Origin: a virus
Taxonomy: Duplodnaviria; Caudoviricetes
Length of the DNA: 64,000 nucleotides
IMG/VR virus record: IMGVR_UViG_3300015608_003951
Location: 32,001 to 96,000 of that record
Direction: 5' to 3' (one strand)
Part shown: positions 36,115-44,636 of the stretch, piece after piece
Position numbering within the stretch: the first letter of the stretch is position 1
How the letters are laid out: every line of letters begins with the position of its first letter
Made by a program: the position numbers and the translations under genes
The notes under the pieces: model-generated
Seen by the model: only the letters and a program-made list of their open reading frames with translations
Told to the model about the DNA's origin: nothing
The model's database searches: none

Positions 36115-36679
36115 CAAGCAGCGGCTTCTGGAGGCCTACCTACTCCAGATGTTCCGCAACAAACCTCTCATCGTGTCCGTGCACGGTGTCTACATAGACA
36201 CCCAGAACGCTCTGGCACACATCGCCCACCTGTTCAGGGAGAACCTGCACCACAACGTTGTGACGCCCCTCGCGCGGTATGAACCTGTGGTGCTTTGCGA
36301 CGGGCCCTTTACGCTGCCCTTTTACGGGTTCAGCGCGCACTTGCCGCTAAGGGGTCGGAAGATCGTTCTTACCCGGGGCGAGGTGACGAAGGAGATCATC
36401 CTTGATACGTTTCACACCGTAGACGTGGACGTCTTGGATATGCCCAAAGCTGCGAAGCGCCCCTCTACGCGCCGCGCGCAGCTCTACCACCAAAACAACC
36501 CCCGCTGGGACCTCCCCCATCAGCCGCCACATCTCGCCAGGTTTTTGCGCCGCAAGTACCTCCTGCACCAGCTAGCTGAACCTACGAACCAGACGATCCT
36601 GGTGCAGGGGGCCTTCTTCTGTACGGAAGAAGGCAGAGCCATGATGTCGGAGCTCGGCTTGACAGTGGAGGATTCATGA
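36065..36679 (+). CDS. hypothetical protein
   Basis: GAGGA SD, 204 aa. Confidence 0.6.
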   Translation: MDLSKLYGEVRGASSVNKQRLLEAYLLQMFRNKPLIVSVHGVYIDTQNALAHIAHLFRENLHHNVVTPLARYEPVVLCDGPFTLPFYGFSAHLPLRGRKIVLTRGEVTKEIILDTFHTVDVDVLDMPKAAKRPSTRRAQLYHQNNPRWDLPHQPPHLARFLRRKYLLHQLAEPTNQTILVQGAFFCTEEGRAMMSELGLTVEDS

Positions 36680-36772
36680 GCACCCTTACCCCCATGCTGT
36701 TAATCCACCTACCGCGAGGCCCCCCTCTGTAGCCCTGGTTCTGCACCCATCAACCAGCCAGGAGATCTACAG

Positions 36773-37078
36773 ATGACCGACAGCGACAAGAAACAGCTCA
36801 AAAAGGCGCTTCATAAGCGCTTGCAAGAAAAGCCCTTTGGGTTCTGCGCCCGTGCGCACCTTCTCTTCCTCGCCTTCCTCCACGGCAGGGCGCACGAGAC
36901 CATCGAGCGCAGGGTCCACGCCTCCACCTACTACGGCAGAACGCCACTTGCCGCCTACGTCAGGTTTACCCTTTGCAGCGATCCCCCTCTGCTCCCTGAA
37001 GAGGACTTCCCTCTCGAAGAGTTCTCCGCCTGGTGCTCCGGCCTGAAGGGGAGGATCAAGGGTGGCCCCGAAACTTTA
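36773..37078 (+). CDS. hypothetical protein upstream of the PTH2-like gene (ends at TTA)
   Basis: AGGAG SD and an ARAHLLFLAFLHGR motif. TTA 37076-37078 gives a short overlap. Confidence 0.6.
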
Positions 37079-37382
37079 CCAGGTTGTGAGGGGGGACCTC
37101 TCTCCAGGACAGCAGGCGGTGCAGAGCAGCCATGCCCTGGTCGAGATGTTTATCCACTACCCTGAGCTTATCCGCTCCTGGTACGAGAGCAGCAACACGC
37201 TGGCCTTGTTGTCCGTTGCGAGCGAGAAGCACCTCAAGGAGCTTCAGCTCGCTGCGCAGTTGCACAAGATCCCTTCTGTGCAGTTTCGGGAGCCTGACAG
37301 GAATAACGAGACTACAGCCTTGTGTCTGGGCCCGGAGGCGTTGCGTCTCGTACGCAAGCTCCCCCTGGCCCTGAGGCTGTGA
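37062..37382 (+). CDS. peptidyl-tRNA hydrolase PTH2-like protein
   Basis: LYQVVRGDLSPGQQAVQSSHA...W...FREPD...TALCLGP matches the PTH2-family signature. GGAGG SD. Confidence 0.85.
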   Translation: MAPKLYQVVRGDLSPGQQAVQSSHALVEMFIHYPELIRSWYESSNTLALLSVASEKHLKELQLAAQLHKIPSVQFREPDRNNETTALCLGPEALRLVRKLPLALRL

Positions 37383-37395
37383 TCACGGAGGTTTG

Positions 37396-37800
37396 ATGGC
37401 TGATAAGGAAGATGGGTACAACAGAGGCCCCCTCAGGGCCCGCACTGTGTTCCAGGTGTGGATCGTCCTGGACACTACTGAGCTAGATTTCGATCGTGCT
37501 CAGCAGGTTTTCTACACGTACCGAGATGCTCTCCTGGCGGTGAAAAACCGCCTGGAGTCCACGTATCCCGGGATCTACAGCAGGCTGTCCCCTGCGGACG
37601 CCTACGAGAAGGCGTACGACGCACACAGGCGCTGGTGCGTGCGGGAGGTTGATGTCCACACCTTCAAGGCCTTGCACAACGCCAACTCGGGCGCACGGAC
37701 CAAAATGCTGTCTCTGCTGCTCCGCACTCTTACGGAGGAACAGAAGCAGATGCTACACAAGGAGGGCCTTCTCGAAGACGAGGATCTCGGCACCGTGTTA
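37396..37800 (+). CDS. hypothetical protein (ends at TTA)
   Basis: GGAGG SD. TTA 37798-37800. Confidence 0.6.
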
Positions 37801-37855
37801 CAAGCAACGTGCAGCAGACTAGCGTACGACTAGCTTTGGGGCCTTAGGCCCCCCT

Positions 37856-37928
37856 GAGGGTGTAGTTCAATTGGCAGAACGACGGCCTTAATCCCCGTGC
37901 GTTGTGGGTTCGAGTCCCCCCACCCTCG
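37856..37928 (+). tRNA. atypical tRNA with TAA anticodon (reads UUA), short variable loop and Trp-like body
   Basis: Acceptor stem GAGGGTG/CACCCTC, D arm GTTC-AATTGGCA-GAAC, anticodon loop CT-TAA-TC, T loop TTCGAGT, G73, no encoded CCA. C31.C39 and U50.C64 mismatches. Confidence 0.75.
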
Positions 37929-37949
37929 CAGATCTGGTAGGTTTGACGC

Positions 37950-40238
37950 ATGAAAGAAGCAGGGCACCCCGAGGACCGCGTTCGGGAGCGTTCCACCCTG
38001 GACCCGGACACGCTGCTAGCGGCTGCTCGCCCTAAGCTGAAGTCCATCCCGGAAGATGGCGCTGAAAAGTACCACTGGCGTGTGGAGGAGGGGGGTAAGC
38101 TCCACGGGTACCTTGCGATCAAGCGCGTCGGAAAGAAGAGGCGGCCGGTGGTCGCCACTTTTCTAGCCCCGCATATGACCCCCTCGGGGGAAGATGTATC
38201 TGGGCACCTCGGCCCCCTCCTCAAGGCGGCTGAGCTTAGGACCGAACTGCTGCCCCACCAGCAGCGCGTCGTGGATAGGATGAAGGACCCCAACCAGACG
38301 GGACTGGTCGTGGTCCATGGACTTGGTTCAGGCAAGACTCTCTCGGCCATCGCCACCCAGGACGCCCTCAAGTCTCCTGCGACCGTCGTGGTCCCCGCGG
38401 CCCTCCAGGAGAACTACGCCAAGGAGCAGCGCAAGCACATCAAGGGGACTCCCCCCAAAACCACGCTACAGACCGTGCAGCGCGTTGCCTTGGATGGCTC
38501 CCCTGCTTCAAACCCCCTTCTCGTCGTGGACGAGGCACATAGGCTTAGGGACCACACCAGTGCGTCCTTCCAGGCCATGAAAACCACAGACGCAGAGAAG
38601 CGTCTGCTGCTCACGGGATCTCCCTTTTACAACCACCCTGCGGACATCGCCCCGCTCGTGAACCTGGCGGCCAAGCAGAAGATCCTGCCTATGGACCGTC
38701 CTGAGTTCGAGGGTAAATACATCGGCATCAAGAAGGTGAGTCCTGGCTTCATCCAGGAGCACCTCATGGGGGTGGCTCCTGGAGAAGTTCCCGTCCTGAA
38801 CGAGAGGAACGCGCCTGAGCTGCGTGAGATCCTGTCGAAGTACGTGGACTACCATCCGGGCAGCAAGGACCACTTCCCCGACGTGACCCGCGAGGACGTG
38901 GTCGTGCCCATGTCTCCGCAGCAGAAGGACGTCTACGACACCCTCATGGGGCAGGCCCCTAGCTGGGTGTCGGCCAAGGTCCGTCGAGGTTTGCCGCCTA
39001 ACAAGAAGGAGCTGGCACAGATGGGCAGCTTCCTTACCGCGCCAAGGCAGGTCGCCAACACGACGGCCCCCTACTCGGAGGAGCTGAACCACTCCCCAAA
39101 GATTGACGAGGCCTTCAAGCGGCTGAAGAGCAGGATCGACAAGGACCCCAACGCCAAGGCAGTCATCTACTCCAACTTCTTGGACGCCGGCATCAACCCC
39201 TACAAGGCCAAGCTCCAGGAGGCTGGCATCCCCTTCGGGGAGTTCACGGGCGAGATGAAGAAGAAGGACCGCGACCAGATGGTGCGGGACTACAACGAAA
39301 ACAAGCTCAAAGCCCTCTTGCTCAGCAGTGCGGGTGGAGAGGGCCTTGACCTGAAGGGGACCAAGCTTGTGCAGCTACTCGACCCCCACTGGAATGCTGA
39401 AAAGCTGAAGCAGGTGGAGGGCCGTGCTGCCCGCTTCAAGTCTCACGACGACCTGCCGGAGGGCGAGCGCAACGTACACGTGGAACAATACCTCTCGGGC
39501 ATCAAGCCGGGGCTGGTTGACCGTGCGGGGCAGTTTCTCTTCAACCGGAAGCCCGATGAGACGGTCGATCAGTACCTGAACATGATGAGCAAGCAGAAGG
39601 AGGCGCTCAACAAGCAGTTCCGCGACCTGCTCCCCAACCACGAGAAGAAGGCCGACGCCGAGTACGAAGAGCCCTCTGAGCTGCGTACGAAGACCCTCGC
39701 CACCCTCGGATACGCTCTGCCCACACAGGCCACAGCTTCTGCGGGCTGGCTGCCTCACACCGGAAGGTCTTCTTTCTTCCCAAACCTACTGGGCACGCAG
39801 GTTGTCGCGGCCCCAGTCAGCTATATCCTGGCTAACCAGAACATCAAGCGGCAGGACGCTTACCCGAAGAACCTGGCTAAAGCGATAGCGAAAAAGCCTT
39901 CCAGGGAGTCAGAGGTGCGTGACCAGGCCGAGCTCTCTGGGTTGGGGCTGGTGGCGCAGTCCCTGAAGTCAGCCCTGAAGGGGCAGGCTCTGGGGTCGGC
40001 CTTGGCGATTATCGAGTCGCGAAAGCCAAAGCACGCCCTGCCTCTGATGGCTGTCCAAGCACCGTTTCATCTTGCAGGCGGCATCGCTCGCACGCTGATG
40101 GAGCGGGACACCGCTCGGATGGCGCTCAACAGGCTCGAAAGCGCCAAGGGCACCGCTGAGAAAGATGATGAACGGCGGCTGCACCGGCTGAAAAAGGAGG
40201 TGGCCCGCATCGAGAGTAGGCGGAGCACGGAGCTCTTA
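37950..40238 (+). CDS. SNF2-family helicase/ATPase with extra N- and C-terminal modules (ends at TTA)
   Basis: LLPHQ, HGLGSGKT, VVDEAHRLR, LLLTGSP, AGGEGLDL and QVEGRAAR motifs. Confidence 0.9.
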
Positions 40239-44580: not shown

Positions 44581-44636
44581 GACCACTCGCGGGGGAGGGT
44601 GGTTCTTTTTAGCCCAGAACGCGGTAGCCTTTGCAC

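Follow-up and report, generated by a model that had tools for sequence, protein, structure and literature searches.

The DNA analysed here, referred to below as the window, is a stretch of 64,000 nucleotides of a phage genome (Duplodnaviria; Caudoviricetes) comprising bases 32001-96000 of the IMG/VR record IMGVR_UViG_3300015608_003951. The whole record (162,306 bp, 62% GC, estimated to be 87% complete; G000 in the following) contains two tRNA genes, one for Met (CAU) and one with the anticodon UAA. The latter is the subject of this work. It stands in a run of plus-strand genes formed by a short leader open reading frame (ORF), a conserved protein of no assigned family (p101), a PTH2-family peptidyl-tRNA hydrolase, a further small protein (p135), the tRNA itself and an SNF2-type helicase. 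An earlier reading made from the sequence alone had noticed that the anticodon matches an apparent stop codon, and had suggested an unchargeable RNA promoting release at UUA, with a readthrough tRNA as its fallback.

The tRNA gene is real, as both prediction tools used here confirm. ARAGORN places a tRNA at 37856-37929 with the anticodon taa starting at its position 34 (37889-37891), and the Rfam model RF00005 matches 37856-37928 on the plus strand over its full length (model positions 1-71), scoring 51.1 bits (E 5e-8; gathering score 29). Its acceptor stem (GAGGGUG/CACCCUC) has seven of seven Watson-Crick pairs, its D stem (GUUC/GAAC) is paired at all four positions, and the tertiary core is complete, comprising U8-A14, the Levitt pair A15-U48, G18G19, U54U55C56, A58, G53-C61 and U33. 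The Rfam alignment flags just two pairs as non-standard, the mismatch C31.C39 of the anticodon stem and, in the T stem, U50.C64. The anticodon loop reads C32 U33 U34 A35 A36 U37 C38 (CUUAAUC), the variable loop consists of five nucleotides (GCGUU), and the discriminator G73 is followed by CAG, so that no CCA is encoded. The sequence-only reading had described all of these oddities, and each can be read in the sequence. The minimum free energy (MFE) fold of the tRNA alone is not a cloverleaf (z-score -1.2) and is uninformative. The hairpin GGGGCC-TTA-GGCCCC pointed out earlier is also present, three nucleotides 5′ of the tRNA (37839-37853, plus strand), and appears in the MFE fold of 37800-37960. 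It was not scored as a terminator and, since no U-run follows it, may serve in processing or mark a boundary. Apart from the tRNA, a permissive Rfam scan of 36500-38200 detected neither a ribozyme nor any further RNA.

Leucine identity is lacking, as had been stated before. Type II tRNA-Leu is marked by a long variable arm and by A73, the latter being important for leucyl-tRNA synthetase in identity studies on E. coli. The UAA tRNA has a type I body with a variable loop of 5 nt, compared with 13-14 nt in the canonical tRNA-Leu(UAA) of the phages L018 and L070, and carries G73; those two tRNAs combine the long arm with A73 and A37, none of which it has. The L070 gene, with A37, A38, A73 and a 13-nt variable arm, contrasts with it throughout. 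The suggested resemblance to bacterial tRNA-Trp holds in part: tRNA-Trp accounts for 14 of the 25 blastn matches among annotated phage tRNAs, whereas the highest partial identity (84%) is to a tRNA-Lys from a Streptomyces phage. The tRNA-Trp elements are an anticodon CCA, with C35 as the major identity element, and G73; here G73 is present, the anticodon is UAA and the pair 1-72 is G-C. The nearest tRNAs among those compared are the CUA tRNAs of related phages described below, which have the canonical loop UUCUAAA and are 62-65% identical (G001, G002), with 15 of 16 D-arm positions identical to that of G002.

The codon to which this anticodon is cognate ends genes. Across standard-code ORFs of the whole G000 record, 25 of 39 in-frame TTAs lie within the last 40 codons, against a baseline of 13% (binomial p 1.4e-13), and no other codon exceeds 22% in that interval. 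In-frame TTA is about 8- to 18-fold rarer than TTA in the other two frames, and the mid-ORF TTAs of G000 resemble in-frame gene boundaries, with either a terminator hairpin or a Shine-Dalgarno sequence (SD) plus start codon behind them. When genes are modelled with four stops, TTA closes 38 of the 169 in G000 (22%), and a single in-frame TTA is left within a conserved gene. The corresponding values are 29% in G001, a complete relative of 177 kb and 46% GC whose helicase is 60% identical, and 19% in the relative G002. The gene bodies of G001 contain 18 in-frame TTAs, compared with 806 and 373 in the two alternative frames; the in-frame counts of CTA, ATA and TTT are about 900-1600 each. Among the G000-G001 orthologues, 21 pairs include a TTA end; the median difference between their C-terminal tails is 2 amino acids if four stops are assumed and 9 (mean 42) with the standard code, compared with 2.5 for control pairs, and in 17 of the 21 pairs TTA stands opposite TGA, TAA or TAG. 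Positional enrichment, in-frame depletion and orthologue C-termini thus confirm that TTA behaves as a stop. It is a fourth stop codon in a subclade of phages of about 160-180 kb and 46-67% GC (G000, G001, G002), where it ends 19-29% of genes; TTA is a normal sense codon in the more distant relatives G003, G004 and L004, and in L014 and L017 at 13-16 per 1000 codons.

Termination at TTA does not depend on the UAA tRNA, because the complete G001 uses TTA ends and has no UAA-anticodon tRNA among its 10 tRNAs, which include Leu-CAA, Leu-UAG and a CUA tRNA. The proposal of an unchargeable release-promoting RNA is contradicted by this relative, in line with the refuting condition that the sequence-only reading had itself set. 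A phage-encoded release factor was likewise rejected as the UUA terminator, since no RF-1 or PCRF domain was found in G000, G001 or G002.

Several further features of codon use were seen in these genomes. TAG ends 8-13% of genes in the TTA-stop phages G000, G001 and G002, compared with 23-24% in the TTA-sense phages G003 and G004, and this under-use includes G000, which no longer carries a CUA tRNA. In the relatives L002 and L003, TGA ends 19 of the 22 called genes and the single TAG 'end' sits behind a TTA and a terminator hairpin. A tRNA array of G001 at 123406-126253 (L008:17745-20592) comprises Ile-UAU, Arg-UCU, Lys-UUU, Thr-UGU, Val-UAC, Leu-UAG and Leu-CAA, with no Leu-UAA, and the genome makes heavy use of CTA (21 per 1000) and ATA (36 per 1000). 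This tRNA set and codon use would fit an AT-rich phage in a host where UUA is unusable as a sense codon even when a tRNA is supplied. Bulk recoding of TAG in the relatives with CUA tRNAs was considered and rejected: one of 18 TAG-ended coding segments in G001 was followed by coding-like sequence, and that one is itself a true gene end. Apparent in-frame stops in the tblastn scan proved to be antisense-frame artefacts.

A second TTA that bears on the tRNA lies upstream in the same module. The leader ORF (36676-36732, plus strand) reads M-S-T-L-T-P-M-L-[TTA]-I-H-L-P-R-G-P-P-L-TAG, with its ATG overlapping the TGA of the upstream gene and GGAGG 5 nt upstream. The in-frame TTA at 36700-36702, which we term the gate, precedes the RGPP codons at 36715-36726. 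Homologous leaders are found in the relatives, where the gate is TAG: M-H-H-[TAG]-L-H-R-S-R-G-P-P in L003, M-Y-H-[TAG]-L-H-L-G-R-G-P-P in G001 and M-R-H-M-H-S-[TAG]-L-H-A-A-R-D-P-P in G002. A DNA-pattern scan added TAG-gated leaders in two unrelated TTA-sense phages, L067 (a 315-kb contig) and L070, where PTH2 and CUA tRNAs follow on the strand of the leader. R-[G/D]-P-P comes at most about 8 codons behind the gate in all of these leaders. Gate codon and the phage's own tRNA agree in six of six cases, TAG with CUA in L003, G001, G002, L067 and L070 and TTA with UAA in G000, and PTH2 lies downstream of the leader in all six. No such leader was found in the TTA-sense phages G003 and G004, which have PTH2 and no suppressor tRNA.

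The peptide behind the gate is conserved as a peptide. Its His and RGPP (RDPP in G002) are kept through synonymous codon changes: the Arg is encoded by CGA, CGC, CGT, AGA and CGG across the phages, and the Pro and Gly codons vary too. We infer from residues kept in this way that the post-gate peptide is under selection and that the gate is therefore read through. RGPP is the most robust arrest core in experiments, and RDPP is partly permissive (PMC12992588). In G000 the last Pro codon also begins the 5′ arm (36726-40) of a predicted hairpin (36726-36773, plus strand; ViennaRNA MFE) whose 3′ arm (36756-73) includes the SD AGGAG (36760-64) as well as the initial base of the p101 start codon. In each of the six leaders, MFE prediction has the SD of the following gene paired to the Pro-Pro codons or to the 3-15 nt behind them.

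Some loci containing related elements were also recorded. At L070:8804-9411 (minus strand) a TAG-gated leader, PTH2, two different CUA tRNAs and the long-arm tRNA-Leu(UAA) follow one another in a row. Matches to TAG-LH..R[G/D]PP at L065:6989-7014, L066:9160-9185 and L069:3011-3036 have no ATG close before the TAG and no tRNA in the stretch examined; they may be variant leaders with other starts, or chance.

The genes between leader and tRNA place the UAA tRNA in a defined slot. p101 (36773-37078, plus strand) ends at the TTA 37076-37078; it is 58% identical to the gene 5′ of PTH2 in L003 and matches the post-leader gene of G001 with E 1e-6. Pairwise BLASTP gave no alignment with the post-leader protein of G002, with which a short motif is common by eye only. 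The PTH2 gene (37062-37382, plus strand; PF01981, 39.2 bits, E 9e-10, cut-off 23) starts at GTG with GGAGGA upstream. It is followed by p135 (37393-37800, plus strand), taken from the ORF list, which ends at the TTA 37798-37800. Neither p101 nor p135 has a Pfam or PHROG family, and their next standard stops lie 29 and 11 codons past TTA, respectively, such that C-terminal extensions would arise if the tRNA were active. The helicase 3′ of the tRNA (37950-40238, plus strand; Pfam SNF2-rel_dom and Helicase_C, and homologues) serves as a synteny anchor and ends at the TTA 40236-40238, with a TAG two codons on. Its homologues P0003, P0004 and P0005 from close relatives are variously fused to intein/LAGLIDADG or InPase domains, marking an insertion hotspot.

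The closest relatives by helicase identity each carry a CUA tRNA (L003, 64%; L002 and G001, 60%; G002, 58%). L003 has the gene order of G000, namely a p101-like gene, PTH2, two small genes, tRNA-CUA and helicase; the tRNA-CUA of G002 is directly 3′ of PTH2, and those of L002 and G002 adjoin PTH2 or the helicase. The UAA tRNA thus holds the slot occupied by CUA tRNAs in L003, L002 and G002, and PTH2 orthologues adjoin a suppressor tRNA in L003, L002, G002 and L070. PTH2 is also present in the TTA-sense phages G003-G005, of which G003 and G004 have no suppressor tRNA, and the whole module of leader, PTH2 and CUA tRNA occurs in L067 and L070, where TTA is sense at 12-20 per 1000 codons. Because the module is found in phages using TTA as sense, PTH2 is not TTA-specific, and neither PTH2 nor p101 was retained as TTA-specific release machinery. 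The relatives were recovered by an alignment-based scan; an IMG/VR single-protein scan and a tRNA-pattern scan gave no match, nor did a megablast of the locus against deposited phages. A search for the host by scanning genome contigs yielded only a distant match in a Rhodoferax metagenome-assembled genome and a weak match in Planctomycetia.

Outside the module, the one in-frame TTA within a conserved gene of G000 lies in a gene for a 455-amino-acid protein of no assigned function at genome positions 109402-110769 (L029:503-1870; beyond the end of the window, at 77402-78769 in its numbering), at codon 180 of 456. The G001 counterpart is one unbroken ORF with CTT at the aligned site. Among the matches listed, 19 of 19 homologues are undivided (370-520 amino acids); 17 of these align over 96-98% of the query and two over only 24-29%. 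The TTA falls in a variable inter-domain linker just before an invariant Lys and is identical in four independent assemblies. It is followed by ACC GTG, with GGAGG 7 nt before the GTG, and the gene is either read through or split.

Taken with the slot and the leader, these data suggest that the UAA tRNA is probably a UUA-reading suppressor that forms the 'key' of a readthrough-sensing switch and has been retargeted to the clade's fourth stop codon; it would be expressed and charged, and would insert an amino acid at UUA. We consider a suppressor for the fourth stop codon, and not a release agent, to be its most likely role, because the slot holds a UAG-reading tRNA in sister phages and the leader gate has changed from TAG to TTA. 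Its anticodon pairs with the codon that ends 38 of 169 genes in the same genome, and in-frame TTAs occur in the leader gate and at codon 180 of the 455-amino-acid gene. The covariation of gate and anticodon and the in-frame TTA of the conserved gene thereby favour what the sequence-only reading had held in reserve, a readthrough tRNA.

The module is ordered as a short leader ORF, p101, PTH2 and the tRNA, with a gate codon a few codons past the leader start and then [L/I]-H-x-x-R-G-P-P. In the mechanism we propose, ribosomes without the tRNA would stop at the gate and the p101 SD would stay paired with the Pro-Pro region. With the tRNA, the gate would be read through, ribosomes would arrest at RGPP and cover the anti-SD arm, and p101 and PTH2 would be translated. 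The simplest reading of the leader is therefore a readthrough sensor, in which only ribosomes that pass the gate could reach RGPP, stall and unmask p101/PTH2. Sister phages pair TAG with CUA, and in G000 both partners would have been retargeted, to TTA and UAA; a stepwise path of single complementary changes leads from TAG/CUA through TAA/UUA to TTA/UAA. The UAA tRNA would also permit low-level synthesis of the full-length 455-amino-acid protein. Given its abnormal anticodon arm (U37, C38, C31.C39), this tRNA may decode weakly, and deliberately so; weak decoding would fit the fact that TTA still ends 22% of G000 genes.

A number of observations weigh against a suppressor. No aminoacyl-tRNA synthetase identity set fits the tRNA, G73 speaking against Leu and A35 against Trp, Gln and Lys. 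A pyrimidine at position 37 and two stem mismatches are unusual in an efficient tRNA, and the Rfam score of 51 bits is lower than the 65 bits of the same phage's tRNA-Met. TTA ends are not depleted in G000 (22%) relative to G001 (29%) or G002 (19%), which counts against efficient suppression, since an efficient suppressor should select against such ends. A backup stop occurs within 10 codons of TTA in 16 of 38 cases (42%) and of standard stops in 36 of 131 (27%), a difference that is only suggestive. The covariation rests on the single TTA/UAA case. A second TTA-gated leader was sought by an IMG/VR pattern scan and none was accepted; the six pattern matches were taken as chance, with no tRNA in the hit loci or in four longer records searched whole, two of the records being incomplete. 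All other assemblies of this phage are identical and give no within-lineage conservation signal, and the 455-amino-acid gene could be split, with re-initiation at the GTG.

In the form considered here, the terminator tRNA of the sequence-only reading would be an uncharged tRNA-like RNA whose pairing with UUA in the A site sets off peptidyl-tRNA hydrolysis or drop-off, release then being completed by the neighbouring PTH2. It accounts for an anticodon cognate to the codon ending 22% of genes, for the missing Leu identity and the abnormal anticodon arm, for a PTH2 gene 470 nt upstream, and for the lack of an RF-1 or PCRF domain in the phage. We nevertheless regard it as barely credible, because the complete G001 as well as G002 end 19-29% of their genes in TTA without a UAA-anticodon tRNA, the slot is filled by ordinary amber suppressors in relatives (G002, L002 and L003), the occurrence of the PTH2/leader module in the TTA-sense phages L067 and L070 shows PTH2 not to be TTA-specific, and the peptide kept after the TTA gate points to readthrough and not only termination. 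Another very improbable alternative is an ochre suppressor read in the wrong register: with C31 and C39 unpaired, a 9-nt loop (CCUUAAUCC) would present U33-U34-A35, that is UUA, and read UAA/UAG. Only four standard stem pairs are present, the MFE fold shows the 9-nt loop, and A36 would then be the usual purine 37. However, the in-frame gate of the leader is TTA, its TAA being out of frame, a C would fall where U33 is needed for the U-turn, and both ARAGORN and Infernal put the anticodon at UAA.

Loss of function and codon supply have to be weighed against the suppressor as well. A former suppressor or Trp-like tRNA that is now inactive, with the leader TTA as just one of four stops, would explain C31.C39, U50.C64, a U37 in place of the near-universal purine, the lower covariance-model score, an MFE fold that is not a cloverleaf (z-score -1.2) and the undepleted TTA ends. 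Such decay is nonetheless unlikely: the acceptor and D stems are perfect and the whole tertiary core is kept, the changes concentrate in the anticodon loop, where they yield the exact complement of the changed gate codon, the RGPP and anti-SD hairpin of the G000 leader are intact, which would be pointless if the gate could never open, and an in-frame TTA persists in a conserved gene. Alternatively, the host may read UUA poorly or late, as in the case of Streptomyces bldA, with the phage bringing its own UUA reader and the TTA ends representing stalls at a hungry codon. A limitation at UUA that phages use for regulation is documented for Streptomyces (PMC10732093), the highest partial tRNA match comes from a Streptomyces phage, and the G001 set (Ile-UAU, Arg-UCU, Lys-UUU, Leu-UAG and others) supplies readers of A-ending codons and omits one for UUA. 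There would be almost nothing to supply in G000, though, since its conserved genes contain a single in-frame TTA and gene ends account for about 38; the long variable arm, A73 and A37 of the L018 and L070 tRNA-Leu(UAA) are missing, and the host scan gave only the distant Rhodoferax and the weak Planctomycetia match. This explanation, which we hold to be distinctly unlikely, overlaps with the suppressor in that both decode UUA, and differs only in what would happen at UUA when the tRNA is absent.

The suppressor interpretation can be set against four known systems. Phage suppressor tRNAs of the amber (CUA), opal (UCA) and ochre (UUA) type are known from recoded and standard-code phages (10.1101/2021.08.26.457843; PMC9523058; PMC10879173). 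The UAA tRNA is like them in that its anticodon pairs with a gene-ending codon, its body is not that of the codon's usual amino acid and sister versions with CUA occupy its slot. Unlike them, it targets UUA, a standard Leu codon that is a fourth stop only in this clade, its loop is non-canonical (U37, C38, C31.C39) and the genome shows no bulk recoding. Arrest peptides of the RAPP/RGPP type include ApdA, ApdP and ApcA, alongside SecM with RAGP (PMC12992588, PMC10951233, PMC7897499). The leader shares with these a short upstream ORF ending in R-G-P-P and a following SD within a predicted hairpin that a stalled ribosome would open. The known RAPP/RGPP peptides monitor protein export or insertion, whereas here the motif is reachable only past an in-frame stop and the input to the predicted arrest would be suppressor activity.

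Reassignment of UUA to stop has been described in labyrinthulean mitochondria (NCBI table 23), peDinoflagellate plastids and Marsupiomonadales mitochondria (PMC12574857). As in these organelles, coding sequences have UUA at their ends and lack it internally. The organellar reassignment is linked to altered codon-reading motifs in RF2 or RF1, and the organelles keep no UUA-reading tRNA (PMC12574857); in contrast, no release factor domain was found in G000 or G001, and a UUA-reading tRNA coexists with the use of UUA as stop. The remaining parallel is bldA, the tRNA-Leu(UAA) behind the UUA-dependent regulation of Streptomyces and of Streptomyces phages (PMC10732093, PMC2000904). In both systems a single UAA-anticodon tRNA would control passage through rare UUA codons, some of them in inter-domain linkers and short upstream ORFs. 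However, bldA is a canonical type II tRNA-Leu with A73, the UAA tRNA is type I with G73, and TTA ends genes here rather than sitting inside regulators.

One further element was noted apart from the module. A recurring motif, TTTAGCCC(C), followed some 10-15 nt later by GGCTAG or GGTAGCC, occurs in the window at 44590-44635 and at L003:3015-3066 and L002:8575-8615. It lies between terminator-like hairpins and the start of the gene that follows, and may act as a phage promoter or mark a boundary of transcription.

A phage clade with TTA gene ends is already unusual, because sense-to-stop changes have been described only in organelles (PMC12574857). A practical consequence is that gene callers over-extend about one fifth of the clade's proteins, and isotype predictors call the UAA tRNA a tRNA-Leu; the reading proposed here gives this 'orphan' non-Leu UAA tRNA a concrete target. 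We go further, with somewhat better than even confidence, in viewing it as a natural suppressor for a codon reassigned from sense to stop, one half of a key-lock pair retargeted from UAG to UUA, such that UUA would be a stop by default and a sense codon when the tRNA is made. Our literature search found no published suppressor for such a codon, and no paper on stop-gated RGPP leaders or on a module of leader, PTH2 and suppressor tRNA. The locus would show how a suppressor is re-aimed through paired changes in codon and anticodon, and the leader, the tRNA and a reporter would make a small system for studying UUA termination, the inserted amino acid and the tuning of readthrough by a weakened loop. 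Since the UAG/CUA switch of the sister phages is UUA/UAA here, UUA appears able to take the place of a canonical stop within a functioning circuit, and the tRNA thereby contributes evidence on function that comes from the phage. If this is true, the meaning of UUA would be conditional within a single infection, and a phage circuit would treat UUA as a true stop that can be overridden on demand.

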